From: Alloascoidea hylecoeti
Lineage: Eukaryota
Direction: 5' to 3'
DNA length: 64,000 bases
Assembly: GCA_001600815.1 (NCBI GenBank)
Contig: BCKZ01000003.1
Location: 1,165,474-1,229,473, forward strand
Positions 1-43,375 of the stretch are shown here, in pieces. The position numbers and the translations under genes were made by a program. Positions within the stretch are counted from its first letter, which is position 1. Each line of letters starts with the position of its first letter. Below the pieces are notes generated by a model. The model saw only the letters and a list, made by a program, of their open reading frames with translations, ran no database searches and was not told the DNA's origin.

Positions 1-341
1 TAATATAAATGAGAAATATATAAAATATGATAGGTTTGAAGATAAATAGTTAGTGATTATAATATGAATAACTGGGTTGTTACATTTATGAAATATCAAT
101 CGAAGTATTACAAGCTCTCTATTTATTCATGGCAATTTATATCCTGGAATGAAGTTTAATTATAAGTAAATTAATAATATGAATGATAACAAGATTGCCT
201 ATAAACTTATACCACATACAATAATTATAGTGTAGTTATAGTGTATTTAATTACAACTATATCCTACCATTATTATGAGTAATGATTGCCGGCCGTGGAT
301 ATTGGGGGGCCACATATGCTGACTGTCCCAGATAATCAAAT

Positions 342-675
342 AATTATGTTGTAGGAACTATATTAGCGGCAGAGATTAGCAGTTCCACTCCTAATTCCCT
401 ATGTTAGAAATATTCGGTATTTTCTTTTTCGGCATAAGGGGACTAACGGTTCCGCATCGGGTGATACAATACTCCGTATTTCCTTTGGGTATATTTGGTG
501 GGTTAGTCAAAAATTTGGAGGTTGTTGATCATAGAAAACAAAAAGTTCGGTGTTCAAATAATAGTCGAATGTTCTAACCAAAAGAATAGGAAATACTAAT
601 ACTGAACTTTATTCCTTCTCCCTAAAAAAGAGCTAATTTGGAGTAGAAACACTATATATAATTAGTGCTACATAT
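342..675. mobile_element. Degenerate foldback/MITE-like element, same family as 54420-54735
   Basis: TTATGTTGTAGGA (344-356) is the exact reverse complement of 54713-54725. TTCCACT, AAATATTCG and TTTTCGGC blocks are collinear with the 54430-54550 arm. Internal inverted repeats: GTTAGAAATATTCG (403-416)/CGAATGTTCTAAC (566-578) and GACTAAC (441)/GTTAGTC (502). Boundaries approximate. Confidence 0.5.
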
Positions 676-1558
676 TTATATATGATAGTACTTTATAATT
701 ATTATACGGTGATCAATTAATAGCAATTAATATTACAAGTCCGAATAAATGCAATCTAAAGCTCGAGTATTCTGCGGTTGCATACGTATAAAGTTGTAAA
801 ATATAATGCTAAGATAAATTTTAGTTAATTCTAAAGGTCATGGAATTGCTATTAATTTAAAAAATCAACATGGGAGAAATTTTATTGTCCATAGCCTCAG
901 CTAAAGTCATTTATAGAGGTACAAAAGTCATCGTCATTATAATCATGCTAATGATGAGTGTAATGCATGTTCTGTATTCAATTCAAAACGGTTCGAATTC
1001 ATGCAATTGCAATGGATGGTAGATCAAAGATAAAGATGCACTGCCTGTAGATATATTGTTTGCAGTGGCTATTATAACGTAAGCGCAACAACTGAGATGA
1101 GTTGAACTTTGTAATTCTTACAATTGGTGAAGATAACCGGCACATGTGAGATGCATATAATGGAGGTTACATAATTACCGAGTATTCTATGAAGCTAAAA
1201 TATGTTGAGGAAGCCGTTGAAGACAGAATAGACAGTGACCACATATTAAACAAAGTCATTGAATGTTGATGATGAATATAGAATATAATTATAGAATGGC
1301 CAATTTTAGTATCTCAGAAAGTCCAAAAACGTCACAAACAAGTTAGAAATGGAAATGCAAATTTACTAAATTTAACCACCACCAGGAAAATTATAATAGA
1401 CGCAGACAAAATAATATTAAAAATGTTGTTGCCTTTAGGACCAACTAGAACTTTTCTTGAGATATAAAACTCCACGGTTTCCATCACTGGGGTGCTTTTT
1501 GTTCCTTTCTACCATATATACATTACTTGTCCTAACTCAATCATTAATTACAACTATC

Positions 1559-4500
1559 ATGGCGACTGCAACTATTGATGTCGTTAGACTACTAGAGATA
1601 GTACTAAATGGTGTTAGTGCTATTAATACCAAGGTTAAAGAAGCAAGACAGATGGATAATCGTGTAATCGATTTGTTGGTGAGCTTTACTGAATCTTCTT
1701 ATCGTTTAGAAAAATATAGGACGAAAATTGATAATTTAGATGAAGATGATGCAAGAATGGCTATGAACTTACTAAGGCCGGTCCAAACGCGAATAGTTCA
1801 GGCAAATGAATTATTTTTATATTATTGTGGTGAGGATTTGGACCCAAACACAACCGATGATGCCGATTTTGAATCAAAGGCGCCAAGATTTGTAAAACAG
1901 ACGAAATGGGATAGGGATAGAGAATATCTAACAACTATGGCAGCTGATGTTGTTAAATATACAGATAATTTCATAAAATTTATGGATGATCGGCAAAAAG
2001 AAGTTGATGCATTAAATGATATCCCATGGGATGATGATTTTAAGGTTGGAAGTCTTGCTTCATTTTCAAGAAATATGAGCTTTTCAGGAAGGGAAGATAT
2101 ATTAGATCAAATATCTTCCTTATTAATTGAAACAACTGGTAGAGCTGAAATCATTTTAGAAGGTATAGGCGGAATAGGGAAATCACAAATTGCTTTAGAA
2201 TATGCTTTTAGGTCTGCAAAAATATATGATAGTATTCTTTGGATAGATGCTCATGACAGCCAAAGCTTAAGAACAGGTATTCGAAATCTCTTAGAAAAGA
2301 TTGTTACTTATTATATCACAAAGATCAGTACAGATAACTATGCCGAAATTGGTAAAAAGTTTGGAATGCCATGGCTTGTCGATGCAAACGGAAAACTAAA
2401 AATCAATGATGATTCTAGAGGTAAATTAGTGTTCGTAAAAGATTGGCTTTTTGGATATAAACAAGATAAAGATGTTGAAGATGATATTCAAAAGGCCATC
2501 TTCAATTGGCTTGGAAATCGAAAAAATAAAAGATGGCTTATGATTATTGATAATATGGATGATCCTACATTCAAAACATTAGACGATGTTATTCCAAATT
2601 GTGATTGGGGTAATGTAATAATCACATCTAGGATTGATAGTCTTCCTGAACATGCAACTGATATTCATGTTGATGATCCAGGTATTGATACTGGTGTTGA
2701 AATATTATTAAAATCAAGTGGAAAATCAAAATCAAATTTAAGTGCTAGAGAATTTCAAGCAGTTGAAGGTATATCAAGAATATTAAATAATCATCCATTA
2801 GCATTAGATATTGTTGGTACTTACGTTGATCAAAATTTAATCTCGTTTTCAAAATATCAAGAAAAACTTGATAAAGATCATGGATTACTATTTAGGACTG
2901 ATGATAATATACCCGGTAAAGAAGATATTATTGATTTAACTTATTTGGTAACATACAATAGTTTATCAGAAAATGCTAGACATATTTTGAATCTATTTTC
3001 ATTTTTTGACAATCAAAATATTTCAAAATCAGTTGTTCAAAAACATGGTGTAAAGTTTGCTACATGGCTAAAAGATTCAAAGTCATACAGCATTGGTGTT
3101 CATGAACTATTAAGGTATTCAATGGTTTATGTTAGAAAGGAATCAAAAGATAACTCACTTGCGGTTCATCCAGTTATTCATAGTTGGGTTAGATCACGTT
3201 TGGATCAGAGTCAAACACAGTATTATGCGAGAATGGCTGTTATGATTCTCTCAGAAGTAGTATCAGGGGATGATCCAACTACAGAAAGACGATACTGGCT
3301 TAGTATTTATCCTCATATCACAGCAATTCTGAAAGTTATTCAAAATGTTTTCTTAACTACCTCTGATCAAGAGTTATTGGATGGTATTGAAAAAATAGCT
3401 GCTTGTTTAGTTCAGTTATGTTTTTTTCAAAAAGCTGCAGGACTAATTGAATATCTTCTATCACGTTATAGGGAACTTTATGATTCAGATAATATTGAAA
3501 CTGTTGAAGCTGAAGAAACATTAGCATCATCTTATTATTTTCTTGGAAGATATGTTGAAGCAATTGATTTATATAAGTTAGCATTAAAGAGTCGTGAGAA
3601 AACATTTGGTGTAAATGATCCAGCAACTTTAGCGGATCAAAGAAATCTTGGATCTCTTTACAAAAATATTGGTGATTATCAAAAGTCTTTAAAATTCTTA
3701 CAAGATGTTGTTGCAAGGTCGACCACATCATTAGGTGATACACATTTAGAAACAGTTAAAGCAAGAAAAACTCTTGGACTTCTATATAAAGATATGGAAA
3801 GGTACAAGGATGCTTTGAAGTTATTAACAGAATCTTATGAGAGTTATAAATCATTGTTTGGAGATAATAATCCTGATACTATTGACACTTTATTGAGTTT
3901 AGGAGAACTTTATAGAATACTAGGACAATATGAAGAATCATTTAAATCTTTAAAGAAAGCACATTCTCAGTTTGAAGCAATATATGGAGAAGAACATCCA
4001 GCTACCTTAAAAGCTAGTGAATGTTTAGGAGTTCTAGATTGGAGGCGAGGGGATTATAAATTAGCAAGAGACAGATTAGAAAAATCATTAGGGTTTCAAA
4101 AGAAGATTTTTGGAGATGAACATCCAAAGGTTTTAAAAATCATTGGATATATTGGATCAATTTATCTAAGTTTAGGAGATTATAAAAAATCATTAGAATT
4201 ATCATTACAAGCAACTAAAGGATTTGAGAATTCTTTGGGTAAAGATCATCGTGATACATTACGTTGTGTCTTAACTTCAGGAATGGCATATTTCAATTTA
4301 GAGGAATTTGATGATGCCATGAATATGTTTCAACGTTCATTGATAGGCTTTGAACGCTATCCAATTTCTCAAGATCTAGCATTAACAACACTTAATATCG
4401 GTAGAATTCATCTTGTCAAATATCAATATGTTAAAGCGAAAGAAATGCTAACAGAATCCTATGATCAATTTAATAAATTATTTGGTAAAGCACATCCAAA

Positions 4501-5473
4501 TACTTTAGAAGTCTTAACAACATTAGGATCGTTATATAATGAAATGGGACATACACAAAAGGCTCTGGAAATATTTAAAGAAGTTCTTGATATTTATGAT
4601 AAATCTGAAAATCCAAGACTACCAAATGTTTCAACAACGTTAGATATGATGGGACAAGCTTACACCAAAAATGGTGAATATAATTTTGCACTTGTTAGAT
4701 TTAAACAAGCTCTTGCCAATAGAAAAAAATATTTAGGAGATGAGCATCCAGCTACATTAAGAACAATCAAAGATATTGGCTTTACATATTTGAGTCAAGG
4801 TGAATTTCAAACGGCTAAGACTTGGTTTGAACTTTCCTTAAAAGGATTTAATGATTTAGGGTATGAAAACTCTACTAAATTTGATGCTTTGAATGGTATT
4901 GGTATGGTTTATACAGAAATGGGAAAACCATCAGAAGCATTGAGTTATTTCCAAGAATCAATTAAAGGGTATGAAGAACTTTATGGGTCAAATCATCCTA
5001 AAACAATTGAAGTTTTTGTGAACATTGGTTTCTCATTTGAAAAAATTAAAAAATTGGACAAAGCATTAGAATACTACAATACAGCTCTTAATAAATGCAA
5101 TAATAATAAAACCAACTTTGATAATACGTTGCTTTTGACAATAAATTCTCATATTGGTAGTGTTTATATTCAACAACAAAAATATTTTGATTCTAAAAAT
5201 TTACTAGAAGGGTTGGTTAGAGATTATGAGAATGATTTAGGAGAAGATCATATTGATACATTTAAAACAAAGGAAAAACTTGGTGTTGTTTATGGTAACT
5301 TAAAACAATACAAAGAAGCATTTGAAATTTTAGATGAGGCGCTTAAAAGATATGATGATTTATTAGGATTAAATAATACAGATTCAAAAAGAGTTAAGAA
5401 TTTGGTTAAAACATTCAAAAGAGAGAGACGTGTTGAAAAATTTAAGAACATTCTATTTTGTCGTGGTAATTAA
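1559..5473 (+). CDS. Fungal NLR-type STAND ATPase: N-terminal HeLo-like/SesA-type helical domain + NB-ARC + TPR array (1304 aa)
   Basis: First ATG at 1559 (the track starts at an upstream TTG). NB-ARC motifs: FSGRE, P-loop GIGGIGKS, Walker B WLMIIDNMDD, sensor-1 VIITSR, NHPLAL (GLPL), VHP (MHD). About 15 repeats of ~42 aa carrying FGxxHPxTL-type TPR signatures. Confidence 0.93.
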   Translation: MATATIDVVRLLEIVLNGVSAINTKVKEARQMDNRVIDLLVSFTESSYRLEKYRTKIDNLDEDDARMAMNLLRPVQTRIVQANELFLYYCGEDLDPNTTDDADFESKAPRFVKQTKWDRDREYLTTMAADVVKYTDNFIKFMDDRQKEVDALNDIPWDDDFKVGSLASFSRNMSFSGREDILDQISSLLIETTGRAEIILEGIGGIGKSQIALEYAFRSAKIYDSILWIDAHDSQSLRTGIRNLLEKIVTYYITKISTDNYAEIGKKFGMPWLVDANGKLKINDDSRGKLVFVKDWLFGYKQDKDVEDDIQKAIFNWLGNRKNKRWLMIIDNMDDPTFKTLDDVIPNCDWGNVIITSRIDSLPEHATDIHVDDPGIDTGVEILLKSSGKSKSNLSAREFQAVEGISRILNNHPLALDIVGTYVDQNLISFSKYQEKLDKDHGLLFRTDDNIPGKEDIIDLTYLVTYNSLSENARHILNLFSFFDNQNISKSVVQKHGVKFATWLKDSKSYSIGVHELLRYSMVYVRKESKDNSLAVHPVIHSWVRSRLDQSQTQYYARMAVMILSEVVSGDDPTTERRYWLSIYPHITAILKVIQNVFLTTSDQELLDGIEKIAACLVQLCFFQKAAGLIEYLLSRYRELYDSDNIETVEAEETLASSYYFLGRYVEAIDLYKLALKSREKTFGVNDPATLADQRNLGSLYKNIGDYQKSLKFLQDVVARSTTSLGDTHLETVKARKTLGLLYKDMERYKDALKLLTESYESYKSLFGDNNPDTIDTLLSLGELYRILGQYEESFKSLKKAHSQFEAIYGEEHPATLKASECLGVLDWRRGDYKLARDRLEKSLGFQKKIFGDEHPKVLKIIGYIGSIYLSLGDYKKSLELSLQATKGFENSLGKDHRDTLRCVLTSGMAYFNLEEFDDAMNMFQRSLIGFERYPISQDLALTTLNIGRIHLVKYQYVKAKEMLTESYDQFNKLFGKAHPNTLEVLTTLGSLYNEMGHTQKALEIFKEVLDIYDKSENPRLPNVSTTLDMMGQAYTKNGEYNFALVRFKQALANRKKYLGDEHPATLRTIKDIGFTYLSQGEFQTAKTWFELSLKGFNDLGYENSTKFDALNGIGMVYTEMGKPSEALSYFQESIKGYEELYGSNHPKTIEVFVNIGFSFEKIKKLDKALEYYNTALNKCNNNKTNFDNTLLLTINSHIGSVYIQQQKYFDSKNLLEGLVRDYENDLGEDHIDTFKTKEKLGVVYGNLKQYKEAFEILDEALKRYDDLLGLNNTDSKRVKNLVKTFKRERRVEKFKNILFCRGN

Positions 5474-5921
5474 TTTTTTTTTCTTCCTATGATTATGATT
5501 ATGATCAAAATATACTACTAATATTACAAATACAAATTTGTTTAACCTTTTTCTTTTTTACAATTAATTAATTAGGAATTATGTATTTCTATTCAACATA
5601 TTGATATTTTGCAGTTGACTGTTATATAACTTATTGACTTTTAAATTTATTATGTATTTTTATTTTCATTGACTTGATTCTCTTATTACCAATTTACTTT
5701 ACTTTGTTTATCTTCTTTCTTATGATAGCGTTTGGATATATATTTCTCAAACACTGACATTTTTAATTTAATTTGATTATATACTTATAAATTATGTATT
5801 ATTCTATTTCTATATCAATTGTTATGATTAATCTAACACCAAGCTATGAAGCTAGCATCAACCTTTTATAGTTCCAGTCAAATATCATGTCACCTGTTTC
5901 CCCTTATGTTACTTTGGAAAC

Positions 5922-5950
5922 CCGGGTGAAATATACCAAAAGTTACGGGA
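5922..5950 (+). repeat. Core of dispersed repeat (CCGGGT-N14-NTTACGGGA)
   Basis: Same 29-nt fixed-spacing core at 16872-16900 (+), 10777-10805 (-) and 19928-19956 (-). Confidence 0.5.
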
Positions 5951-6293
5951 AGTGAGGCCTATATATATATGTTTTTATATTATTAGAAAAGTACAGAAGA
6001 AATTAAGTTTTGGTCTTTACGTTTGAAATCTTTAATCTATAACAAGTTATCATTGAAGCTAAGAATTCTAGGAGTTGTGATCTGACTGACTTTTAAGAGA
6101 TTCTTCATTTTTGATTAAGTTATTGATTTTTGTGTATTCGCTATCTCTGACATTCCTAGCTGAGTTTGTATTTTTGTTTTGATATTTTTATTGCTTGCTC
6201 AAAAATGCTCATTGTTATACGACACCCTTTAAAAAGGATTTTTTTTGTTAAATCTTTCCTTCCATAATACCCGTATAGGTTTGATGGATATGC

Positions 6294-7140
6294 TTGTGGT
6301 GAGGATTTGGACCCAGACACAACCGATGATGCCGATTTTGAATCAAAGGCGCCAAGATTTGTAAAACAGACGAAATGGGATAGGGATAGAGAATATCTAA
6401 CAACTATGGCAGCTGATGTTGTCAAATATACAGATAATTTCATAAAATTTATGGATGATCGGCAAAAAGAAGTTGATGCATTAAATGATATCCCATGGGA
6501 TGATGATTTTAAGGTTGGAAGTCTTGCTTCATTTTCAAGAAATATGAGCTTTTCAGGAAGGGAAGATATATTAGATCAAATATCTTCCTTATTAATTGAA
6601 ACAACTGGTAGAGCTGAAATCATTTTAGAAGGTATAGGCGGAATAGGGAAATCACAAATTGCTTTAGAATATGCTTTTAGGTCTGCAAAAATATATGATA
6701 GTATTCTTTGGATAGATGCTCATGATAACCAGCGCTTGAGAGCTAGCATGAGGGCTGCGTTGCAAAAAATAATTACCTACTATATTATAGTTATAAAGGC
6801 AAATACATACTACATAACTATGCCGAAATTGGTAAAAAATTTGGAATGCCATGGCTTGTCGATGAAAACGGGAAACTAAAAATCAATAATAATCACATCT
6901 AAGAAGAATCTTATTCCTGGGCATGCAACTTATATTCTTGTGGGTAATCCAGGTGTAGACACAAGTATGAATATATTAATAAAAGCAAGTCCTAACGAAG
7001 TACATGCAGTTAGAAGTATATCAAAAAGGTTAAATAATCATCCATACGCTTTAAATGTGGTTGCTAATTATGTTAAACAAAATTTAATCTCGTTTTCAAA
7101 ATATCAGAAAGACATCTACTATTCCGGGATGGATGAGCAA
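6294..7140 (+). pseudogene. Truncated, frameshifted paralog of the NLR (end of N-terminal domain + partial NB-ARC)
   Basis: 6294-6725 matches 1825-2256 with only two mismatches seen. Beyond that it diverges, with a frameshift near 6790-6815, a ~210-bp deletion removing Walker B and a ~24-bp deletion. Homology fades near 7110-7140. No native start and no TPRs. Confidence 0.9.
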
Positions 7141-7562
7141 TTATCTGAATTTCGAGCTGTTCAAAATTATGTAAACTTATATGCACTGTAAGGTGTATGA
7201 GAAGTAAATCAGAAAAACAGATTCTCAACACAACCACGAAATTAAAATTAGTATTGGCCGAAATTTAGTCAACGTTAGAAAAGTATTGTATATTTGAAAT
7301 AAAAGTTTTTAAGTGTTATTAGAAATTAATTGACATCAGTTCGTCGTAGCGTGTAACTCTAACAAAAAGATCTTATAAGCAATTTAGAACCACTTGGTGA
7401 TAGATTCCTTAAGTAAGGTTATATAAGATTTTATACTACTCCCTAGTAACTTAAACTGTCTACCTAATGATGATATAGTATTTATTTTAGAATAACGATT
7501 TATAAATTTATACCATATATGCATCTGAGAGTAACTTTAGGCGGATTAAGTTGATTAAGATC

Positions 7563-7675
7563 TAGATACGGATATCCTTGATTCCCGCAATTATACCTTA
7601 GACCCAATCGAGTGAAAAATAGCTTCTGTTCTGTGGAACCAAATATATCGATATCAGAGGTTGATTCTAAGATTC
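7563..7675 (-). repeat. Dispersed repeat copy related to 16820-16962
   Basis: GATTCCCGCAATTATA (7580-7595) is the exact reverse complement of 16930-16945; collinear flanking similarity (CAATCGAGTGAAAAATA vs CAATCAAGTAAAAAATA). Confidence 0.55.
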
Positions 7676-7906
7676 TTGTGTATCCATGTGGGTCAGGCAG
7701 CTAAACTAAATACAGACAACTTCTCACAGAAAGTACATTTAGGAAGATTATAATCGACAGTATAATAATAAAGTAAATTAACAAGTTAATAGTATCATTT
7801 TTTGGTAATCATCCGGTCTGAAACATACTCTATTCTGAAATATACGCATCCCCCACGTCCGAAGAACATTTTGAAATTTGCGGTTTTGTGAATGTCTTAT
7901 TAGAAT

Positions 7907-10297
7907 ATGAATGGTTCCCTTTTTATAGGGCTCCCCAGGGCATTATCTTTAAATATTGCTTCATTCTCTATTTCAAGATCTTTAATATTCTCTTCAAGAA
8001 CTTGTTTGAAATCAAATTATCATAATGTTTTAACAAATTTTGGATCAGTTGCGAGATTTAGTACCTTGAATTTTTACCCAAAAAGGGAAATCTATTACAA
8101 ATCAAGTGTTATGATACAACATCAACATCAACATCAACATCAAAGTAAATATTTATTACCAGATAGTATATTGAACAAGGTATCAATATTACATTTATAT
8201 AATAACTTTCAGATATACCGGAATTTCACTATAAGATCTATTTCAAATAACGAATTAAATAAAAATATTAATGATCCACCATTAACAAAACAGGTACTAT
8301 TGAATGATGATAATAAAACTTTAAAACAAAAAAACTTAACAAAAACAAATGAAATATCGTTATCATTAGATAATGATAATAATAATGAAAATAACAACAA
8401 TAATAATAATAAATCTGGTTGGAATGATATTGTTAGACTTTTTAAAATAGGTCAAAAAGAAATAGGACCAATGGCATTAGCAATTATATTTTTATGTATT
8501 TCATCAGCAATAACAGTTTCTGTACCATTATGTATTGGTAAAATTCTTGATTCTTCATTATCTGAATCAAAATTAATTTTTGGTTTACCATTAAATCAAT
8601 TTTATTATTGTATTAGTATATTTTTTTTAATTGGTGCCTTATCAAATTTTGGTCGTGTTGTTATATTAAAGTTAATAGGTGAAAGAGTTGTTGCAAGATT
8701 ACGTTCATTTATGTTTAAAAAAATAATTACACAAGATTCTGAATTTTTTGATAAAAATAGAGTTGGTGATTTAATTTCAAGATTAGGTGCTGATTCAAAT
8801 ATAGTTGCAAGATCAATAACTCAAAATGTATCTGATGGTTTAAGAGCAATTGTTTCTGGTGTTGTTGGATTAACAATGATGTGTTATGTTAATTTACAAT
8901 TAACCTTAGTTATGATTATTGTTGCTCCACCTTTAGCTATTGGAGCAATGATTTATGGTAAAAGAATAAGACAAATTTCAAAAGATTTACAAGAATCAGT
9001 TGGTACTTTAACAAAAGTTGCTGAAGAACAATTAAATATGGTTAAAACAATTCAATCTTTCAATGGTGAAGTCAAAGAAGTTAAAAAATATAATAATCAA
9101 GTTAGAAATGTTTTTTCAATTGGTAAAAAAGAAGCTTTAACAAGTGGTGTATTTTTTGGTTGTACAGGTTTAGTTGGAAATTTTACAATTTTATCATTAT
9201 TAATTTATGGAACAGGTATGGTTAGTAGTGGAGTAATGTCAATGGGTGATTTAATATCATTTATGATGTATGCTGCTTATACTGGCTCATCAACTTTTGG
9301 TCTATCAAGTTTTTATTCAGAATTAATGAAAGGTACTGGAGCAGCGTCAAGATTATTTGAAATAATTGATACAAATTCAAAAATTCCAACAACAAAAGGT
9401 TTAAAATTAAATAATGCAAAAGGTACAATAATTTTTGAAAATATAAATTTTAATTATCCAACAAGAAAAAATGTTAGAATTTTTAATAATTTAAATTTTA
9501 AAATTCCAATGGGTAGTAATATATGTATTGTTGGTCCTTCAGGTAGTGGTAAATCAACAATTATATCATTACTTTTAAGATTTTATGATCCAGTTTCTGG
9601 TATAATTAAAATAGATGATAAAAACATTAAACAATTTAATTTAAAATCTTTAAGACAAAGATTAGGTGTTGTTCAACAAGAACCTGTTTTAATAAATGGT
9701 ACAATATTTGAAAATGTTGCTTATGGTGTTAAACATGCAACAATTGAACAAGTTAATGAAGCATGTAAATTTGCAAATTGTCAATTTATAAATGAATTTC
9801 CAAATGGTTTAAATACACAAGTTGGTCCACGAGGTACAAAATTAAGTGGTGGACAAAAACAAAGGATTGCAATTGCACGTATAATTATTAAAAATCCTGA
9901 TATATTAATTTTAGATGAAGCAACATCTGCTTTAGATGTTTTATCAGAACGTTTAATAAATAATACATTAAACAAATTATTTTCATCAAAATCAATTACA
10001 ACTATTTCAATTGCTCATAGATTATCAACAATTAAAAAAGCAGAATTAATTATTGTTTTAAATAATAAAGGTGAAGTTATTGAAATTGGTAAATTTAAAG
10101 AATTATTTTCAAATGAAAATTCTGAATTATGGAAATTATTAAATGATAATAATAATACTACTAATCATAATACTATTGGTAATGATGAAATTAAACAAAA
10201 AGAAGAAGAAGAATTATTGTTAAAAGAACAATTGATTGAAGAATTAGAACAACAAAGAGATGAAGATGATCAAAGAGATTTAAAATTGAAACTTTAG
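7907..10297 (+). CDS. MDL1: Mitochondrial inner-membrane half-size ABC transporter (ABCB10/Mdl1 family)
   Basis: Presequence-like N-terminus; TM domain with TQNVSDG and YTGSSxFGLSSFYSELMKG; Walker A GPSGSGKS; signature LSGGQKQR; DEATSALD. Closer to Mdl1 than Mdl2 by recalled motifs. Confidence 0.88.
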   Translation: MNGSLFIGLPRALSLNIASFSISRSLIFSSRTCLKSNYHNVLTNFGSVARFSTLNFYPKREIYYKSSVMIQHQHQHQHQSKYLLPDSILNKVSILHLYNNFQIYRNFTIRSISNNELNKNINDPPLTKQVLLNDDNKTLKQKNLTKTNEISLSLDNDNNNENNNNNNNKSGWNDIVRLFKIGQKEIGPMALAIIFLCISSAITVSVPLCIGKILDSSLSESKLIFGLPLNQFYYCISIFFLIGALSNFGRVVILKLIGERVVARLRSFMFKKIITQDSEFFDKNRVGDLISRLGADSNIVARSITQNVSDGLRAIVSGVVGLTMMCYVNLQLTLVMIIVAPPLAIGAMIYGKRIRQISKDLQESVGTLTKVAEEQLNMVKTIQSFNGEVKEVKKYNNQVRNVFSIGKKEALTSGVFFGCTGLVGNFTILSLLIYGTGMVSSGVMSMGDLISFMMYAAYTGSSTFGLSSFYSELMKGTGAASRLFEIIDTNSKIPTTKGLKLNNAKGTIIFENINFNYPTRKNVRIFNNLNFKIPMGSNICIVGPSGSGKSTIISLLLRFYDPVSGIIKIDDKNIKQFNLKSLRQRLGVVQQEPVLINGTIFENVAYGVKHATIEQVNEACKFANCQFINEFPNGLNTQVGPRGTKLSGGQKQRIAIARIIIKNPDILILDEATSALDVLSERLINNTLNKLFSSKSITTISIAHRLSTIKKAELIIVLNNKGEVIEIGKFKELFSNENSELWKLLNDNNNTTNHNTIGNDEIKQKEEEELLLKEQLIEELEQQRDEDDQRDLKLKL

Positions 10298-10672
10298 AAT
10301 TTACGATACATATATAAATTAGAACTCAACCCTTCATATCCTTTTGTATTCACATCCCTCTAGGAGATTTCAACAATCTTACTTAAATATAGATCCACCT
10401 CTCATCTCAATCTTTCTTATATCCAATTAGTCTTATGATTAAGTTTGTGTTGTAAAATCACCATTTCACTTAAGAAAAGTGGACTAAATTTAATGGTGAT
10501 CCTTCTTTTAGCTGATAAATCCGACAGCCACTTTAATTTCTAAAGATTTCCAAGTAACTCACAGGATTCATACCATCTTAGGATAGTCATTCAATAATCG
10601 AAATTTTGCTATACCTTTAAATATTTCATACCTTTTTAGGATAGTGCCAATTACATAGTTTAGCCATCTACA

Positions 10673-10821
10673 GTTCTTTGACTCCCAATGGTAACTTGCT
10701 GTAGATATTAAAGATTTAATGTACTCACTATGCATATGAATATAGCTAAAAATAAGATTTCCGGATAAACGGTGTATCCCGTAAGTTTTGTGTGCTTTTA
10801 CCCGGCGTTGAGTCTCTCATG
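10673..10821 (-). repeat. Dispersed repeat copy (pairs with 19792-19970)
   Basis: Collinear shared blocks: CCAATGGTA, AATGTACTCACTATG/AATCTATTCACAATG, TAAACRGTGTATCCCG, TTTTAYCCGG, CATG. Confidence 0.6.
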
Positions 10822-11950
10822 CAGACGACATTCTTCACGTATAGGCGCGTCTTCTATAGTTAATTATGTATTAAATTCAATAGCTATAAGATTTTTAGAA
10901 TATATACTATACAGGTAATAAAAAATTACAATAAATATAATATTGAACAATGATAAACTTATGACCTGATTAAAGGAAGGAAAACAATTTGATCTTTCTT
11001 CTGCTTGATGAATTCGAATATAATCATGTTAAAGAATCTTGTTATATTACGTTTGTTTTCTTACTTGGATCCCTAGAGAAATAATATGGGGATGGCAATT
11101 TAAATATTTATTTTAGAATCTTTTATCCTAAAATTTCTCGGAACCCCTATCTCGAGACTCAATTACAAGATAAGAATACCGGTATCCCTTTTCCAGCCCT
11201 TCAGTGTATCTGAAAGTGGCTTCGTGACTTTATTTGCATATTTATTTTCATATATTATACTGTGTTTGGATATCAATTCTCTCTTTTCAATGTTTTCATC
11301 AGTTTTTAATATTAGCTAGATAATGATGAATTAATTAATCATTAATTTAGGAAATTTATCACTTTATTTGGTTCTTTAGCTGAACATGATTCAGCCGAGT
11401 AGTCTAACATAATATCTCCATCACAGTTGCAACGTTAACCAACAAAACACCTGAAAAGAGTTCAATTCTTCAATAGGATAATAACTTGCTACTAATTAAG
11501 ATTTTCGGATTGCTTGAATGACTGCTGCTGAGATTGATGTTCTCCTAATAATTTGGATTACCAATTATTATTAAGTTAAAAATATTTAATTGCATAATTT
11601 GAAGCTCTAGCGATTAATTAATTACGTCGATAAATATATTTGAAGTGTTTGAATTGCCCTCATATACCTACATATACGTAATCGAGCTTCACTCAAGTAG
11701 TACTGTTTGATTGCTGAGGCTTAATTATAGCTCCACCACAATCGTCAGATGCTATTAATTACCGCAAGGTTTGCGGCTGATAATTAATAACTTTAAATAT
11801 ATATATGTTCACTGATAAATTGATTTTGGAGAATTCCATATTTATTGTTTAAAAGTTAAGAAGTCTTTTTACATGTAGCTAATACAGTAGTATTACAATA
11901 GCAATAATTTCATGATAAGTATATTGACCACGATCATTAACATTTGTTGG

Positions 11951-12000
11951 TCATACGCGCTTATACGCGTCTATACGCGTCTATATGCGTCTATACGCAT
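11951..12000. repeat. Five tandem 10-bp units (consensus CTATACGCGT) containing two perfect ACGCGT (MCB-like) sites
   Basis: tcatacgcgc ttatacgcgt ctatacgcgt ctatatgcgt ctatacgcat, about 270 bp upstream of the ATG26 start. Confidence 0.85.
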
Positions 12001-16819: not shown

Positions 16820-16962
16820 AGGAATTCTGGGAAATTCAAGCTTTGATTTTGACGTATCTTGCAGGATTAACCCGGGTGAACGTACGCGAAACTTCCGGAG
16901 TTTATTTTTTACTTGATTGAGATTCAGGATATAATTGCGGGAATCTTTGCCTATGTATCTTA
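16820..16962 (+). repeat. Dispersed repeat copy carrying the CCGGGT core and the block shared with 7563-7675
   Basis: CCGGGTGAACGTACGCGAAACTTCCGGAG (16872-16900) and TATAATTGCGGGAATC (16930-16945). Confidence 0.55.
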
Positions 16963-17375
16963 AATATAACATTATCAGTCAAACTCAGTGTTTAGATCAG
17001 TTCCTTTCACGTCTTTCTAAGGTGAAATATATATATTATCATTATGTTGAGAGTTACTAGTATAATCATAATTAAGTTGTAGCCAATATTTTATGTAATT
17101 CAAGTTTATAATATAATTAAACGTACAACAAGATTAATATTGACAATCAAACAAAACACACCAATAAAAGAAAGACAAAGGAATATATTTAATCAGTTGT
17201 CGATCTTCAACATATTAATGTCCTTAAAATGGTCCAAAAGACACCTTTTTATACTATTCCCTACGTCTGCGGCACGTGCGCAATATAACATCATCCAATG
17301 CATATTAATATTTAATCCTCCATGTCTCGTTCTTCTTTCCTTTTCCAACTTCTTCAATTGATCTTTTATTTCTCA

Positions 17376-19421
17376 ATGTCTACTCAATTGCAAAACGGAA
17401 TTCCCGAAATCGTTAGACAAGATCCATGGCTTACGCCTTATACTGATGCTATCAATACCCGGCTTAATCTCGTCAATGACTGGTTGGCGAGATTACAGCG
17501 TGATGAAGGGGGTATTTTGAAATTCTCTGAGGGTTTTAAAAAATATGGTCTCCATGTTCAACCAGATAATTCTGTGGTGTATAGTGAATGGGCTCCAAAT
17601 GCTATCAAAGCATCGTTAATTGGTGACTTTAACAATTGGGATGCATCTCTTAACACAATGAATCAAGATCCTTATGGTGTGTGGCATGTTAAAGTCCCTC
17701 CGACTGGATCTGGTCAAGTGGCGATCCCACACGATTCTAAAATTAAAATTAGATTGACCATACCAGGTGGTGAAGTACTTGATAGACTACCTGCTTGGAT
17801 ATCAAGGGTAACACAAGATCTTTCGGTATCATCCGTTTATGATGCTAGATTTTGGAATCCATCTAAAAAGTATCAGTTTAAAAATCCAAAACCTCCAAAA
17901 CCTGAAAGTATTAGAATTTATGAAGCTCATGTTGGTATTTCAACTCCTGAACCAAAAATTGGTACTTATAAAGAATTTACCGTGAATATGTTACCACATA
18001 TCAAAAAGTTAGGTTATAATACTATTCAGTTAATGGCCATTATGGAACATGCATATTATGCTTCTTTTGGTTATCAAATTACTTCATTTTTTGCTATATC
18101 TTCAAGATATGGTACACCAGAAGAATTAATGGAATTAATTGATACTGCACATGGTCTTGGTTTAACTGTTTTATTAGATGTTGTACATTCTCATGCTTCA
18201 AAAAATGTATTAGATGGTATTAATATGTTTGATGGTACTGATTATCAATATTTTCATTCTGGTCCAAAAGGAAATCATGAATTATGGGATTCAAGATTAT
18301 TTAATTATGGTAAACATGAAGTTTTAAGATATTTATTATCTAATTTAAGATATTATTTAGATACTTATGGATTTGATGGTTTTAGATTTGATGGTGTTAC
18401 TTCAATGTTATATAAACATCATGGTATTGGAACTGGATTTTCTGGTGGTTATCATGAATATTTTGGTGATTCTGTTGATGAAGAAGGTGTCAATTATTTA
18501 ATGCTTGCAAATCAATTAATTCATCAATTATCTTCTAATTATATTACAATTGCTGAAGATGTAAGTGGTATGCCAGGTTTATGTGCAACAATTAAAAATG
18601 GTGGTACAGGTTTTGATTATCGTCTAGCAATGGCTGTACCTGATATGTGGATTAAAATGTTAAAAGAGAAAAAAGATGAAGATTGGGATATTACAAATAT
18701 TGCTTATATATTAACGAATAGAAGATATAAAGAGAAAACAATTGCTTATTGTGAATCTCATGATCAAGCATTAGTTGGTGATAAAACTTTAGCATTTTGG
18801 CTTATGGATAAAGAAATGTATACAAATATGTCTGTTTTATCACCTTTAACTCCAATTGTTGATAGAGGTCTTGCTTTACATAAATTAATTAGATTGGTTA
18901 CACATGGATTAGGTGGTGAAGGTTATTTAAATTTCGAAGGAAATGAATTTGGTCATCCTGAATGGTTAGATTTCCCAAGACAAGGTAATGGTAATTCATA
19001 TCATTATGCAAGAAGACAATTTAATTTAATTAAAGATGAAAATTTACGTTATAAATTTTTAAATGATTTTGATTCAGAAATGCAAAATAAAGAAGAAAAA
19101 TTTGGTTGGTTACATTCAGATCAAGCATATATTTCATTAAAAAATGAATCTGATAAAATTTTAGTATTTGAACGTGCTGGATTACTTTGGATTTTTAATT
19201 TTCATTCAACAAATTCTTATGCTGATTATCGTGTTGGTATGGAAATACCTGGAAAATATAAAATTATTTTAAATACTGATGATGAAAAATTTGGTGGTCA
19301 TTCAAGAGTTGATAATAATACTGAATTTTTAACAACTGATTTAGAATGGAATGGTAGAAAAAATTTCTTACAAGTTTATATTCCTTCAAGAACTGCTTTG
19401 GTTTTGGCAAAACAAGATTAA
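17376..19421 (+). CDS. GLC3: 1,4-alpha-glucan (glycogen) branching enzyme, GH13
   Basis: [48 protein letters not shown]. Start taken as ATG 17376; an upstream in-frame ATG exists at 17322. Confidence 0.96.
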
Positions 19422-21813: not shown

Positions 21814-24242
21814 ATGTTAGCTGCAAGATTTCAATTAAAAAAGGTATTATATCAATCGTCATAATGTAAAACGTATTTTTTTTTAACACTTTTTTTCTTT
21901 TACTCCAGCAATTTGCTTCATTAAATGTCCAAAGTCGACGATCATTAGCAACAGCATCATCTTTAAATCTTGATTCATTAGTTGAACAAAATCTATTAGA
22001 AAAAGGAAATTACATTAATTATAAAAAACATTTAGAAAATGTTAAAATCGTTCAAAATCGTCTTAAACGACCTCTTACATATGCTGAAAAATTATTATAT
22101 GGTCATTTAGATAATCCACATGAACAAGAAATTACTAGAGGAGAATCTTATTTAAAATTAAGACCTGATAGAGTTGCTTGTCAAGATGCAACTGCTCAAA
22201 TGGCTATTTTACAATTTATGTCTGCTGGTATGCCACAAGTTGCTACTCCAACAACTGTTCATTGTGATCATTTAATTCAAGCTCAAGTTGGTGGTATTAA
22301 AGATTTACCAAGAGCAATTGATATAAATAAAGAAGTTTATGATTTTTTAGCTTCTGCTTGTGCTAAATATAATATTGGTTTTTGGAAACCTGGTTCTGGT
22401 ATTATTCATCAAATTGTTTTGGAAAATTATGCTTTCCCTGGTGCTTTAATCATTGGTACTGATTCTCATACTCCAAATGCTGGTGGTATGGGTCAATTAG
22501 CCATTGGTGTTGGTGGTGCTGATGCTGTTGATGTTATGGCTGATTTAGCCTGGGAATTAAAAGCTCCAAAAATTATTGGTGTTAAATTAACTGGTAAAAT
22601 GAATGGTTGGACTTCTGCAAAAGATATCATTTTAAAAGTTGCTGGTATTACAACTGTTAAAGGTGGTACCGGTGCAATTGTTGAATATTTTGGTGATGGT
22701 GTTGAAACTTTATCATGTACTGGTATGGCAACAATTTGTAATATGGGTGCTGAAATTGGTGCAACAACTTCAACTTTCCCATATAATGATTCTCATTTTG
22801 CTTATTTAAAAGCAACTGGTCGTACAAAAATTGGTGAATTTGCAAATTTATATAGAAATAGCTTTTTAAAAGCTGATGAAGGTGCAGAATATGATCAATT
22901 AATTGAAATTGATTTAAATACTTTAGAACCTTATATTAATGGTCCTTTTACACCAGATTTAGCCACCCCTGTTTCAAAAATGAAAGAAACTGCTATCAAA
23001 AATGGTTGGCCATTAGAAGTTAAAGTTGGTTTAATTGGTTCATGTACAAATTCTTCTTATGAAGATATGACAAGATCTGCATCAATTATTAAGGATGCTG
23101 CAAAATATGGTTTAAAATCAAAAGCAATTTTCACTGTTACACCAGGATCTGAACAAATTAGAGCAACAATTGAAAGAGATGGACAATTGGAAACTTTCAA
23201 TGAATTTGGTGGTATTGTTTTAGCAAATGCTTGTGGTCCATGTATTGGACAATGGGATCGTCGTGATATTAAAAAAGGTGATAAAAATACAATTGTTTCT
23301 TCATATAATAGAAATTTTACTGGTAGAAATGATTCAAATCCTCAAACCCATGCTTTTGTTGCATCACCTGAATTAGTTACTGCTTATGCAATTTCTGGAG
23401 ATTTAGGTTTTAATCCATTAACTGATACTTTAAAAGATAAAGATGGTAATGAATTTAAATTAGCTCCTCCACATGGTGTTGGTTTACCTATTAATGGTTA
23501 TGATCCTGGTGAGGATACTTATCAAGCTCCACCTGCTGATAGATCACAAGTTAATGTTCAAGTATCACCAGAATCTGATCGTTTACAACTTTTAACTCCT
23601 TTTAAAGCATGGGATGGTAAAGATGTTTTTAAATTACCAATTTTAATTAAATCTTTAGGTAAAACAACAACTGATCATATTTCTCAAGCTGGTCCATGGT
23701 TAAAATACAGAGGACATTTACAAAATATTTCCAATAATTATATGATTGGTGCAATTAATGCGGAAAATGGTGAAGCAAATAATATTAAACATCGTTATAC
23801 TGGTGAATTTGATGGTGTACCAGAAACTGCTATTAAATATAGAGATGCTGGTATTAAATGGGTTGTTATTGGTGGTGATAATTTTGGTGAAGGTTCATCT
23901 CGTGAACATGCTGCTTTAGAACCAAGATTTTTAGGTGCTTTTGCAATTATAACAAAATCATTTGCTAGAATTCATGAAACAAATTTAAAGAAACAAGGTT
24001 TATTACCATTAAATTTTGTTGAACCTGAAGCTTATGAAAAAATTAATCCTGATGATGAAGTTGATTTAATTGGTGTTACAGAATTAGCACCTGGAAAAAA
24101 TTTAACTTTAAGACTTCATCCAAAAGATGGTTCTCCTTCTTGGGAAACTCCTTTATCACATACTTACAATGCTCAACAGATTGAGTGGTTTAAAGCTGGT
24201 TCTGCATTGAACAGAATGGCTGCTTTAGCTGCTGCTAAATAA
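21814..24242 (+). CDS. ACO1: Mitochondrial aconitase; exons 21814-21843 and 21909-24242
   Basis: Exon 1 [10 protein letters not shown]. Intron 21844-21908 (GTATTA..TTTAAC..CAG). Exon 2 in frame with [38 protein letters not shown]. Confidence 0.96.
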
Positions 24243-24650: not shown

Positions 24651-25790
24651 ATGCCACACGCTTGTAGAGGAGTTACAAAAACAGATGAACCATGTAAAGT
24701 GAAAATAGCAGATTCAGATTCTTCTGATTTTTGTCGTTATCATAAATCTCAAGAAAATGGTTATGCTCCGAATGTTCCTGGAGGAGGATCGCCAGAGAAG
24801 AATTCAAATTCAAAATCTCCTAAATCTAACAGAAGATCATCATCACCAAAATCAACCACAAAAGTGAAAACAACAACTAATAAAAAAATATCATCTGTTT
24901 TTAAACATAAACCTAAAAATTCAAATGATTCAGTTTATTCAAATGATGGTTCACCAAAATCAAAATCAAAATCAAAATCAACTACAAAAGTGAAAACATC
25001 AACCACAAAAGTGAAAACAACTAAAAAAACTAATAATTCAATTAATGATTCAAATGATACTGAACATTATAGTAGCAAACCTGGTTATATTTATTGTTAT
25101 ACTTTATCACATTTAGTTGCTCCATCACCAGAAAAAGTCCCATGGTTAAACGTTGCAAGTGGTCCAAGAACTCCATCATTATCAAAAAATGATAAAGAAA
25201 ATTATGATTGGGAACATTTTGATCCAAAAAAACAAATCATGATTAAAGTTGGAGTTACAACAAATCATATATCAAAAAGATTACAACAATGGAAATCACA
25301 ATGTTCACATGATTTAACCCAATTATATCCTGATGATGATATAATTGAAACTGTTATAAATTCAAGAATTGGTACAAGTATTTATACAATTGATAAACTA
25401 TTTAATAAATTAACTTTAGGTGGATCAAATGGTAGAATAATAAGTGAATTAACAGGTGTTAAAAATAAATTTAATTTTTTTGATTCTTATGATAATATTG
25501 AAAGAGGTTTTAGATGTGATCAAGCTTATAAAGCTGAACAATCAATTCATCAGAAATTAGGTGATTCTTATGGTTCTGGAAATGTTTTATGTGAAGCTTG
25601 TAGTAAATCAAATAAAGATGGGAAATTAAGTATTCATACTGAGTGGTTTATTATTCCAAGAACTGATTTAACTAAAGTATTTGCTTTAATTAATGAAGAA
25701 TGTACAAAATTTAATACTGTTGAAGATAATGGGAAAATGAGTTTTATTTATAAAGATCCTGTGGGGAATAAAATTGAAACTGTTACTTAA
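24651..25790 (+). CDS. T5orf172/MUG113 (GIY-YIG-like) domain protein with N-terminal Cys/His motif and Lys/Ser-rich linker
   Basis: CRGVTK..CK..FCRYH; PGYIY; IKVGVT..KRLQQW..QC; AEQSIH; CEAC..HTEWF; repeated STTKVKT units. Confidence 0.75.
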   Translation: MPHACRGVTKTDEPCKVKIADSDSSDFCRYHKSQENGYAPNVPGGGSPEKNSNSKSPKSNRRSSSPKSTTKVKTTTNKKISSVFKHKPKNSNDSVYSNDGSPKSKSKSKSTTKVKTSTTKVKTTKKTNNSINDSNDTEHYSSKPGYIYCYTLSHLVAPSPEKVPWLNVASGPRTPSLSKNDKENYDWEHFDPKKQIMIKVGVTTNHISKRLQQWKSQCSHDLTQLYPDDDIIETVINSRIGTSIYTIDKLFNKLTLGGSNGRIISELTGVKNKFNFFDSYDNIERGFRCDQAYKAEQSIHQKLGDSYGSGNVLCEACSKSNKDGKLSIHTEWFIIPRTDLTKVFALINEECTKFNTVEDNGKMSFIYKDPVGNKIETVT

Positions 25791-27419: not shown

Positions 27420-27531
27420 TTAAGCGGTTTTATGGTGATTCAAACCATAGAGTTCTTTATCATCCTTAATTGATTCATCAATGTAGTTTAAGGCTTCTGG
27501 TTGTTTCTTCATTTCTCACTAATGCCATCAC
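27420..27531 (-). pseudogene. Decayed TPR fragment of a third NLR paralog
   Basis: Minus strand 27515-27420 reads EMKKQPEALNYIDESIKDDKELYGLNHHKT vs NLR 4916-5005 EMGKPSEALSYFQESIKGYEELYGSNHPKT: 19/30 identical, ungapped. Confidence 0.75.
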
Positions 27532-28927: not shown

Positions 28928-29761
28928 TTAGAAGAGTGGAGAAGATTCTAATATATTAATCTGCAAATGTGAATTTGAATTTTCATTTGATTTAAATTGT
29001 TGTTTCATATTCATAAATAGGTTTAAATCTAAAGTTTGTTCCCTTGGATATTTATAATGTTCAAGTTCTTCAATACCATCAAGACTCAAGAAATTATTAT
29101 CATATAGTGGAGGTAAAACTGGAGGAGCACTTAGAGTATTCATTGAGTTAATTGAAGCTTTTGATTTATGAACCATTTGATTTGCTATGGAAACCATTGG
29201 AAGACTGTAAATTGAAGATAGGGAGCTTGTGCTTGGCTTGTGGGTGTAGGTGTGGAATTCCTGGAGCGGATGGAGGGACGGGGAAAAGAAGAGGTCGGGG
29301 ACGTTTGTGGAGGAAATGGAAGACGAGGAACGGGACCTGCTGCGGGTAATTGGGTGTTCTGGGATTTCGTAGACAGGCAGCTTGGATCCGGAAGACCTTC
29401 TCATCCCACACTCTCTTGTGGCGGTTGGAACCATTCTCGGCTTAGCGGTTGCATGTTGAATTTTAGGCTGGGCAATGTTGAAAAGAGAAACTGCTGAATA
29501 ATTGTAGACAACTCTAAACCATCGCTTAATACCGATATTTCTAAAGACCAACACGTAGTAATATATCACCAGTAGACCAGCTATGGTGAAAAGTAAGAAA
29601 TCCGCATGTTTCAGCAAGAAAATATGAAACGCGGAGGCTCTTAAACCTTTATCAAAAGGATATTTGAAAAGACCATTATAGGGGAGAACGAAATTGATGA
29701 TACCAGTATCTCTGTAGGCATGCTCTCTGAGCAGAACCAAGTCATGGGGAGGTGGAATCAT
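28928..29761 (-). CDS. Hypothetical 277-aa protein with one predicted TM segment and a Ser/Pro-rich tail
   Basis: ATG-started ORF; hydrophobic FLLFTIAGLLVIYYYVLVF; more GC-rich than its surroundings; family not recognised. Confidence 0.55.
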   Translation of the reverse strand: MIPPPHDLVLLREHAYRDTGIINFVLPYNGLFKYPFDKGLRASAFHIFLLKHADFLLFTIAGLLVIYYYVLVFRNIGIKRWFRVVYNYSAVSLFNIAQPKIQHATAKPRMVPTATRECGMRRSSGSKLPVYEIPEHPITRSRSRSSSSISSTNVPDLFFSPSLHPLQEFHTYTHKPSTSSLSSIYSLPMVSIANQMVHKSKASINSMNTLSAPPVLPPLYDNNFLSLDGIEELEHYKYPREQTLDLNLFMNMKQQFKSNENSNSHLQINILESSPLF

Positions 29762-43200: not shown

Positions 43201-43375
43201 TGACCAACAATTGAAATTTACCAAATTCAATTTGGTGAACAGTAGATTTTGCATGTACTGTTATATACGCCCATGTGCGTATATTACAGCACATACAATG
43301 TTTATTTACAAATTAAAAAAAAAGAACAGTAATACATACATAATTAAAGAAAATATATATAGATTTGTTAATTCA

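Follow-up and report, generated by a model that had tools for sequence, protein, structure and literature searches.

An apparently resident NLR-type NB-ARC-TPR gene in a deep-branching budding yeast lineage

The 64,000-nucleotide stretch of contig BCKZ01000003.1 analysed here (the window) carries, at positions 1559-5473 of its forward strand, an intact open reading frame (ORF) for a protein of the NOD-like receptor (NLR) type, in which a helical N-terminal domain is followed by an NB-ARC nucleotide-binding module and an array of tetratricopeptide repeats (TPRs). We hold it to be highly probable that this is a genuine, host-encoded NB-ARC-TPR gene of the NLR type, and the best explanation, which we favour with moderate confidence, is that it specifies a resident and apparently functional receptor of the STAND class (signal transduction ATPases with numerous domains) that belongs to the fungal NB-ARC-TPR family and resides in a deep-branching lineage of Saccharomycotina. 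A sequence-only reading of the same DNA had proposed a complete tripartite STAND gene with all NB-ARC motifs and about 15 TPRs that shares the AT-rich codon style of its neighbours, and these proposals are borne out by one uninterrupted ORF with the corresponding Pfam domains and an Apaf-1-like structural model, by five unbroken motifs, by 15 repeat units and by a third-position G+C content (GC3) within the range of the neighbouring genes. The gene and its parts are as follows (aa, amino acids).

1559-5473, forward strand: NLR-type gene, 1304 aa (P0001), from ATG to TAA, for which an intron-free model suffices.
1559-2035, forward strand: N-terminal domain, putative effector (cell-death) domain, aa 1 to about 159, predicted four-helix bundle.
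2054-2953, forward strand: NB-ARC module (nucleotide-binding domain, NBD, plus helical domain), aa about 166-465, supported by AlphaFold2 (AF2) modelling and Foldseek, with a borderline Pfam score (23.7 bits on the isolated piece).
2162-2185, forward strand: Walker A motif (P-loop) GIGGIGKS, aa 202-209.
2954-3214, forward strand: winged-helix domain DUF7779, aa 466-552 (Pfam 39-41 bits, cut-off 27).
3500-5383, forward strand: TPR_10/TPR_12-type array of 15 units of 42 aa, aa 648-1275, putative sensor and autoinhibitory domain.

The frame at 1559-5473 runs for 1304 codons with no internal stop, its start methionine (Met) is common to the homologs P0305 and P0308, and the protein is collinear with the homolog P0002 across aa 270-1299. 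The same start Met in three homologs, together with the collinearity with relatives, led us to reject an intron-split or longer gene model. Fungal NLRs have been defined by an N-terminal effector, a nucleotide-binding and oligomerisation domain (NOD) and C-terminal repeats (PMC4986451), and this tripartite plan is found here in a single polypeptide. The gene has a G+C content of 0.307 and a GC3 of 0.172 (neighbouring genes, 0.07-0.29), in a window of about 30% G+C with a GC3 of 0.17 and TAA as the usual stop. CTG is scarce (22 of the 1025 Leu-box codons in 16 window ORFs), and for each of the gene's two CTG codons (aa 591 and 1003) P0002 has Leu in the aligned position; these codons are too few to decide how CUG is decoded, and a reassignment would alter at most two residues of the protein.

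The central module carries the assignment to the NB-ARC family. The whole protein scores 19.6 bits against the Pfam NB-ARC profile (PF00931; cut-off 23.5), the piece comprising aa 168-580 scores 23.7 bits, and the close relatives P0006, P0007, P0321 and P0323 pass the cut-off with 37.6, 34.6, 46.4 and 41.7 bits, respectively. Read directly in the translation are GIGGIGKS at aa 202-209, LMIIDNMDD at aa ~327-335, GNVIITSR at aa 351-358, NHPLAL at aa 410-415 and, within the winged-helix domain, VHPVIH at aa 535-540, which we take to be the Walker A, Walker B, sensor/RNBS-B arginine, GLPL-like and MHD-like motifs, in that order. The Walker A motif class is present in 58 of the 61 relatives checked (P0003-P0064 without P0056 and P0063, the variant GLPGVGKT of P0046 being scored as present), and G48, K49, D172 and R199 are nearly invariant in an alignment of 71 rows (alignment A2). 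An AF2 model of aa 160-600, made with the 71-row alignment of relatives, reached a pLDDT of 87.4 and a pTM of 0.84. When compared by Foldseek to structures in the PDB, this model gave 150 matches with E <= 0.001, the best of them all NB-ARC proteins, of which the first four are ADP-bound Apaf-1 (E 1.8e-12 to 4.8e-11, TM 0.62-0.65) and further ones are resting NRC2, CED-4 and the ZAR1, Sr35 and NRC4 resistosomes, while a phmmer search of the PDB sequences with aa 160-600 returned no relative (a single chance-level match, E 0.19). Because the predicted fold, the motifs and the relatives above the Pfam cut-off agree, we assign P0001 to the NB-ARC clade of STAND ATPases, although its own Pfam score is borderline.

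The C-terminal array is recognised in the whole protein by TPR_12 (PF13424, 350.4 bits in 8 stretches) and TPR_10 (PF13374, 250.4 bits in 8 stretches), and the strongest autocorrelation peak of the region lies at a lag of 42 aa. A self-built profile identified 14 units and one more fills aa 1149-1191, which gives the count of 15. The units are on average 24% identical to one another (maximum 38%), values by which the array appears old and non-homogenised.

That the host is a member of the Saccharomycotina, as the sequence-only reading had supposed, is upheld by two of its genes, UTP20 (57548-63997) and GLC3 (17322-19421). In the UTP20 search, all 13 organism-named sequences among the best 44 matches (554-779 bits, 32-40% identity) come from budding yeasts (Babjeviella, two Scheffersomyces, Candida maltosa, C. 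arabinofermentans, C. oxycetoniae, Hanseniaspora, Millerozyma, Saccharomycodes, Eremothecium, Lachancea, Kazachstania and Ogataea), the highest identities being 38-41%, and the first non-yeast match, from Tirmania, scores 503 bits versus at least 554 for the yeasts. In quick single-gene trees, the UTP20 of the window falls inside a 21-row Saccharomycotina clade (29 rows in all, SH-aLRT 100), as a long separate branch among the sampled orders, and its GLC3 groups with Lipomyces, Limtongia, Trichomonascus and Sugiyamaella (34 rows, SH-aLRT 97), the best relative being at most 71% identical. By these sequence comparisons the host is a deep-branching member of Saccharomycotina.

Downstream of the gene and before an ATP-binding cassette (ABC) transporter gene, two further features bear on its residence and history.

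6288-7116, forward strand: degenerate tandem partial copy of the NLR gene (pseudogene piece), corresponding to aa ~88-285 and ~353-437, in three reading frames.
7201-7600, no strand assigned: dispersed repeat of high copy number, situated between the NLR locus and the gene for the ABC transporter and recognised by word depth in sequencing runs.

By blastn, positions 6288-6893 of the partial copy match 1819-2413 of the gene at 91.6% and positions 6887-7113 match 2616-2867 at 70.6%; the copy lacks codons 1 to ~87, the part around Walker B and all that follows aa ~437. The similarity is a mosaic, in that 1848-2256 and 6317-6725 differ at 1 of 409 bases, whereas the sequence beyond is only ~58% identical and then interrupted by an insertion of 11 bases, and this looks like the pattern expected of gene conversion between a live gene and an old pseudogene. 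The 157-aa ATG ORF at 6406-6879 that the earlier reading had listed is part of this copy. The repeat at 7201-7600 has a summed word depth of 307, 118 and 86 in the runs X1, X3 and X4, compared to about 21, 9 and 9 in its flanks (~10-14-fold), and contains no ORF. Neither tRNA genes nor Rfam families were detected in it or in the rest of the window. Its only match elsewhere in the window is one of 43 bases at 16903-16945, and it may be a transposon or long terminal repeat (LTR) remnant.

The stretch 1400-10300 is contained near-completely (word shares 0.94-0.97) in two runs of one sample, which may be the source of the window, in a run labelled with the same organism code from a second study and in a wood-decay metagenome from a third; X1, X3 and X4 represent these three studies. 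No RNA run is listed among those containing the stretch, which bears on expression in neither direction. With the contigs of these runs placed on window positions 1-12000, unitig depth over the NLR gene equals that over the ABC gene (23.3 vs 21.4 in X1, 9.74 vs 8.65 in X3 and 7.81 vs 9.3 and 6.4 in X4), and no sequence differences inside the NLR ORF are listed in any of the three. A further run from the study of X3 (X5) was not used, having a word share of 0.09 in a few ~200-base pieces at depth 2-3. Contamination is very unlikely because the NLR depth equals that of the ABC gene, no differences are listed in the ORF and the composition is host-like. An artefact, in which the gene would come from a contaminating filamentous fungus or be misjoined to yeast DNA, could draw on the high-copy repeat and the duplicated tract, a misjoin-prone combination that separates the NLR gene from the first of its neighbours, all genes of ordinary fungal housekeeping. 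The interval 6031-7387 is not bridged by any one Logan contig, and the pieces end at 6031, 6081-6346, 6697-7222 and 7387. These short-read contig ends coincide with the duplicated tract and the high-copy repeat, so that the join of the NLR gene to the ABC gene rests on the source assembly alone, which is a gap in cover and not evidence of a misjoin. Yet a misjoin at a repeat would shift the gene within the same genome and not out of it, G+C, GC3 and codon style match the neighbours, depth is equal in three runs from three studies, and the FYMINK value of the protein (0.317) lies above the 0.21-0.29 of its relatives in Pezizomycotina, all of which makes an artefact extremely improbable.

The protein also has close kin of its own compositional type. 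A word-seeded search with aa 1-600 yielded 63 matches, and an exhaustive HMMER search with the same segment against 1.84 billion representatives yielded 14,278 matches at E <= 1e-3, 41 of them at E <= 1e-30. The three best matches are AT-rich-type proteins from two loci, P0002, P0305 and P0308, with 41-64% identity and FYMINK values of 0.32-0.37. P0002 (1045 aa) is 59% identical across aa 270-1299, and P0305 (274 aa), encoded on the same 12,078-base contig, is 64% identical across aa 1-250. Because they share this contig and the tail of P0305 is an out-of-frame reading of the stretch where P0002 starts, the two are best read as one gene split by a frameshift-like break, be it real or an assembly error. 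P0308 (423 aa), encoded on a contig of 21,714 bases, is 41% identical across aa 5-358 and has a degenerate P-loop, GNNNISQRQ. A scan of JGI metagenomes with an alignment of P0002 and P0001 retrieved a single locus (L001), a distant TPR protein with 28% identity. The next 20 representatives that were looked up, 28-38% identical to the query, all come from the early-branching Pezizomycotina classes Pezizomycetes and Orbiliomycetes: 16 from Rhizina undulata, followed by Ascobolus, Wilcoxina and Kalaharituber (Pezizomycetes) and Orbilia; examples are P0003 (RUND412_000939), P0307 (KAL7271330.1), Ascobolus RPA74722.1 and Orbilia KAK6337134.1. A HeLo domain (PF14479) precedes NB-ARC-TPR in 12 of the 20 relatives scanned with Pfam (3 of 8 and 9 of 12), and others carry alpha/beta-hydrolase or PNP_UDP domains at their N-termini, all three being usual architectures of fungal NLRs.

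The partial copy next door, a P0305/P0002 pair called as two ORFs with an out-of-frame overlap on one contig, and a P0308 that breaks off at 423 aa and whose P-loop no longer fits the consensus lend some colour to the alternative that the intact ORF is the last unbroken copy of a decaying family and no longer a receptor. A lone 30-aa stretch at 27426-27515 (reverse strand), 63% identical to the TPR unit at aa 1120-1149 and situated in a 3-kb region without long ORFs, points the same way, as it may be the relic of another NLR copy. We consider this alternative improbable, as 3912 bases have stayed open at ~30% G+C, where stops arise easily, the catalytic motifs are all intact, the Apaf-1-like model is confident and no ORF difference is listed in the runs of three studies. 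Moreover, the near-identical conversion tract would mean that the locus is still recombining, and the P0305/P0002 breaks could be assembly errors.

The N-terminal domain is where the reading as a cell-death receptor meets most of the results that weigh against it. P0305 and P0308 share the domain at 64% and 42% identity, respectively, and a single-sequence AF2 model (pLDDT 69) predicts helices at 2-28, 34-59, 62-91 and 110-153. Against Pfam, aa 1-197 match no family even at E <= 10, including HeLo (PF14479), SesA (PF17107) and PigL_N (PF17111, formerly named HeLo-like N), nor do P0305 and P0308 match HeLo (at E <= 0.01), SesA or PigL_N. Foldseek of the N-terminal model against the PDB returned nothing at E <= 0.001. 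The top 21 rows obtained with VIA-align, which works independently of Foldseek, include the Sw-5b N-domain (Z 11.1), the coiled-coil (CC) domain of Rx (10.6), AtMLKL3 (9.9), MLKL (9.4 and 9.3) and the CC-R domain of NRG1 (8.8), interspersed with generic bundles, among them IncA, proteins of the gamma-tubulin complex and designed proteins, and the tool warns that Z below ~13 is common for any helical bundle, the values here being 9-11; the HET-S HeLo structure is not among the 50 rows listed. Language-model features in the Atlas place the domain of P0001 nearest to a SesA cluster (0.86), followed by PigL_N (0.82) and MLKL_N (0.76), and that of P0308 nearest to HeLo clusters (0.86 and 0.84), SesA (0.83) and PigL_N (0.82), but all of these scores lie below 0.9, where they count as leads only, and for P0308 the agreement extends to 5 of the 10 best matches. 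Profile alignment by hhalign of the three yeast-type N-termini with ten HeLo N-termini gave E 0.019 over 43 columns (aa 103-145 with the last HeLo helix) and with six SesA N-termini E 0.11 over 15 columns, and phmmer of the N-terminus with P0003 gave 17 bits, mostly in the linker. To these results are added, on the same side of the balance, the whole-protein NB-ARC score below the Pfam gathering cut-off, the reliance of the host placement on single-gene quick trees in which no close relative is sampled, the decayed look of the small yeast-type family (the fragment next door, the split between P0305 and P0002, and the degenerate P-loop and early end of P0308) and the low similarity among TPR units, unlike that of the hypervariable fungal NLRs that are proposed to evolve new specificities fast. 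The divergence of the TPR units would instead fit a receptor of stable specificity and not the rapidly diversifying class of fungal NLRs.

The N-terminus had been labelled 'HeLo-like/SesA-type' in the sequence-only reading, and in view of the absent Pfam match we do not class the protein as a HeLo member. As a lead the label keeps its value, strengthened by the true HeLo domain found in many of the closest relatives and by the weak fold and language-model matches, which point to the same group, and we think it quite probable that the domain is a divergent member of the group comprising HeLo, HeLo-like, SesA and MLKL domains that fits none of these Pfam families.

A mechanism for the favoured reading, that of a functional NLR-type receptor, can be drawn by analogy with Apaf-1, plant CC-NLRs and the HeLo/HeLo-like NLR systems of fungi. 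At rest, the TPR array and the winged helix would keep the ADP-bound NB-ARC module closed, and closed Apaf-1 and resting NRC2 are the structures on which the AF2 model of this module can best be superposed. Recognition of a ligand by the TPR array, be it an allelic partner or a molecule that signals non-self or danger, would then permit nucleotide exchange and oligomerisation via NB-ARC. The clustered N-terminal four-helix bundles would act as effectors by induced proximity, with the first, amphipathic helix entering the membrane and the cell being killed or arrested. Since the nearest relatives carry HeLo and the protein's own bundle weakly resembles CC and MLKL bundles, membrane damage with cell death or growth arrest is the most likely output by analogy, and we give an even chance to the proposition that the gene works as a cell-death or defence switch. 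The earlier proposal of a non-self recognition and cell-death system thus stands as regards a complete NB-ARC-TPR protein of the NLR type, while ligand sensing, oligomerisation, membrane attack and the role in immunity or allorecognition would follow from its relatives alone.

A STAND ATPase need not serve immunity, and the protein could instead be a signalling ATPase, for example a regulatory scaffold like the MalT- or AfsR-type TPR ATPases, with the N-terminus as a coiled-coil interaction module. Such a role would suit an N-terminal domain that has no Pfam family and whose structural matches are generic for helical bundles, and the fold matches of the central module do include MalT and an archaeal/bacterial STAND-TPR protein (8bob, E 3.6e-6; 6mfv, E 4.6e-8), just as bacterial NB-ARC-TPR proteins of the XRE-HTH type and of the FxSxx-COOH system are among the sequence relatives. 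However, the Pfam scan of P0001 shows neither a DNA-binding domain nor an enzymatic one, proteins of apoptosomes and resistosomes head the fold matches, and the relatives that are closest by far come from fungi and begin with a HeLo, PNP_UDP or alpha/beta-hydrolase domain, as fungal NLRs do, so that a non-immune role seems rather unlikely to us.

The sequence-only reading had left the origin as 'retained or horizontally acquired', and an NB-ARC phylogeny finds both compatible with the data and singles out neither. Two trees of the central module (a FastTree tree of 71 rows and an IQ-TREE mixture-model tree of 34 rows, both rooted on bacterial NB-ARC-TPR proteins) unite the yeast-type sequences in one clade (98 and 100), which sits with the Rhizina expansion and the clade containing a PNP_UDP-NB-ARC-TPR protein; next comes the HeLo group of Ascobolus, Orbilia and Melanomma, and further out are the groups of the SesA type, of Kalaharituber and of Hirsutella. 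In approximately unbiased (AU) tests, forcing the 21 other rows of the HeLo-type subfamily together with the yeast pair as their sister was not rejected (p-AU 0.154), and a constraint that united all 28 other fungal rows to the exclusion of the yeast pair cost 20.6 log-likelihood units (lnL) and was marginally rejected (p-AU 0.044, for a group named after the tree was seen). A transfer is neither required nor excluded by these trees.

To vertical retention of one ancient paralog, with loss elsewhere in the subphylum, we assign about half of our belief, and a somewhat smaller share goes to an ancient horizontal transfer from a filamentous ascomycete resembling Pezizomycetes or Orbiliomycetes, for instance a neighbour in decaying wood, which would leave the function unchanged. 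A transfer would account for nearest looked-up relatives that are all Pezizomycetes or Orbiliomycetes, for the presence of the stretch in a wood-decay metagenome, for the lack of any organism-named Saccharomycotina protein among the 63 word-seeded matches and for the published survey, which has none in 38 Saccharomycotina genomes (PMC4986451). It would also explain why the yeast pair is nested in the fungal radiation, where it and the Rhizina expansion make up a set of 17 rows (SH-aLRT 97) whose sister is the Ascobolus/Orbilia/Melanomma group (98), and why placing the pair outside all 28 other fungal rows is penalised. Yet NLR families are rich in ancient paralogs, so that nesting is by itself no proof of transfer, the rejection is marginal for a group chosen with the tree in view, and the position of the pair as sister to the whole HeLo-type subfamily is not rejected. 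Identity to the best Pezizomycete relatives is only 29-38%, the stem branch of the yeast pair measures 1.33 changes per column, composition and GC3 of the gene are fully host-like, and the yeast-type loci have diverged to 41-64% identity; any transfer would therefore be old. The conjunction of both propositions, namely that the gene descends vertically from the NLR repertoire of the last ancestor that budding yeasts shared with filamentous ascomycetes and that it still serves as a ligand-triggered cell-death switch in a wood-dwelling lineage, is possible, if doubtful.

The earlier statement that surveys report yeasts as essentially free of NLRs agrees with what these sources say: PMC4986451 has no NLR matches across 38 Saccharomycotina genomes and suggests that unicellular fungi lost such genes, PMC5658179 and PMC9119436 restate that Saccharomycotina are without NLRs, and PMC9815663 counts ~36,000 fungal NLRs with none in unicellular yeasts. 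The four sources use this absence to tie NLRs to multicellular hyphal life. Full-text searches of open-access papers and bioRxiv, supplementary tables aside, returned no report of an NLR from Saccharomycotina. The gene thus represents a known family that is new in a lineage said to lack such genes, with signs of a small and partly decayed gene family, and an intact, resident NB-ARC-TPR gene with sister loci and relics is a concrete exception to the rule of no NLRs in Saccharomycotina. A hyphal host would fit the multicellularity idea and a unicellular host would break it. The gene further bears on whether the ancestor of budding yeasts had NLRs and on whether the HeLo/SesA/MLKL group of executioner domains extends to its unassigned four-helix N-terminus. 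If it is vertically inherited and working, the rule that yeasts have no NLRs would reflect repeated loss and not primary absence, and an NLR pathway for immunity or allorecognition would be open to study within the budding-yeast subphylum, close to the best genetic tools of mycology. Should the gene prove silent or in decay, it would document no more than NLR loss at a late stage, still informative on the history of the family.

Several other genes of the window merit mention. In the stretch 21815-22242 (forward strand), the aconitase gene apparently begins at the ATG at 21815, with an intron of ~64 bases at ~21845-21908 (GTATTA...CAG) before a long exon, and the 5' splice site of this intron is not the GTATGT typical of Saccharomyces. 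Adjoining it, at 24651-25790 (forward strand), lies a gene for a 379-aa protein with a T5orf172/MUG113 (GIY-YIG-like) domain. At 43253-44296 (forward strand) is a gene for an XAP5-domain protein, a family that is not known from Saccharomyces cerevisiae and would fit a host outside the well-known yeast families. Two tandem paralogs of the major facilitator superfamily (MFS) of transporters, of 600 and 564 aa and with the same Pfam pattern, occupy 32855-34657 and 36693-38387 (both reverse strand). A 277-aa ORF at 28928-29761 (reverse strand) has no Pfam match and uses 4 CTG and 6 CTC among its 32 Leu-box codons, unusual here, and it may not be a real gene.

Among known systems, the HeLo-NB-ARC-TPR proteins of Rhizina undulata and other Pezizomycetes and Orbiliomycetes are the best named sequence relatives (29-38% identity, 150-228 bits over aa 1-600) and resemble P0001 in the three-part plan, the NB-ARC motifs, DUF7779 and the TPR_10/12 repeats. 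Their N-termini of ~220-300 aa pass the Pfam HeLo profile (32-75 bits), whereas that of P0001 has ~155 aa and no Pfam match, and only its aa ~101-145 align, to the final part of HeLo. These relatives occur as many paralogs in filamentous hosts, in contrast to the one intact copy seen in the window of this Saccharomycotina host. The SesA/PigL_N-type STAND proteins (Fusarium and Podospora SesA-NB-ARC-TPR, P0028 and P0048) have the same overall architecture as P0001, but their NB-ARC modules form a separate clade. More distant still, bacterial NB-ARC-TPR proteins (the TPR protein of the Streptomyces FxSxx-COOH system, and XRE-HTH and TIR types; 21-30% identity) also combine NB-ARC, DUF7779 and TPR_10/12, differ in their N-terminal modules and form the outgroup in the trees.

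With Apaf-1, CED-4 and the plant CC-NLRs (ZAR1, NRC2, Sr35), the central module of P0001 shares the predicted NBD-helical-winged-helix fold and comes closest to closed, ADP-bound Apaf-1, at 13-18% identity, and their sensors are WD40 or leucine-rich repeats (LRRs), whereas that of P0001 consists of TPRs. The N-terminal bundle resembles Rx-CC, the CC-R of NRG1 and the Sw-5b N-domain at Z 8.8-11.1, a range that is generic for helical proteins. The four-helix bundle of MLKL is an executioner, and HET-S/HELLP-type fungal domains form pores. MLKL differs from P0001 in having a kinase-like domain, and the modelled N-terminal domain of P0001 would likewise comprise four long helices with a hydrophobic/amphipathic first helix, at Z 9.3-9.9 to MLKL and AtMLKL3.

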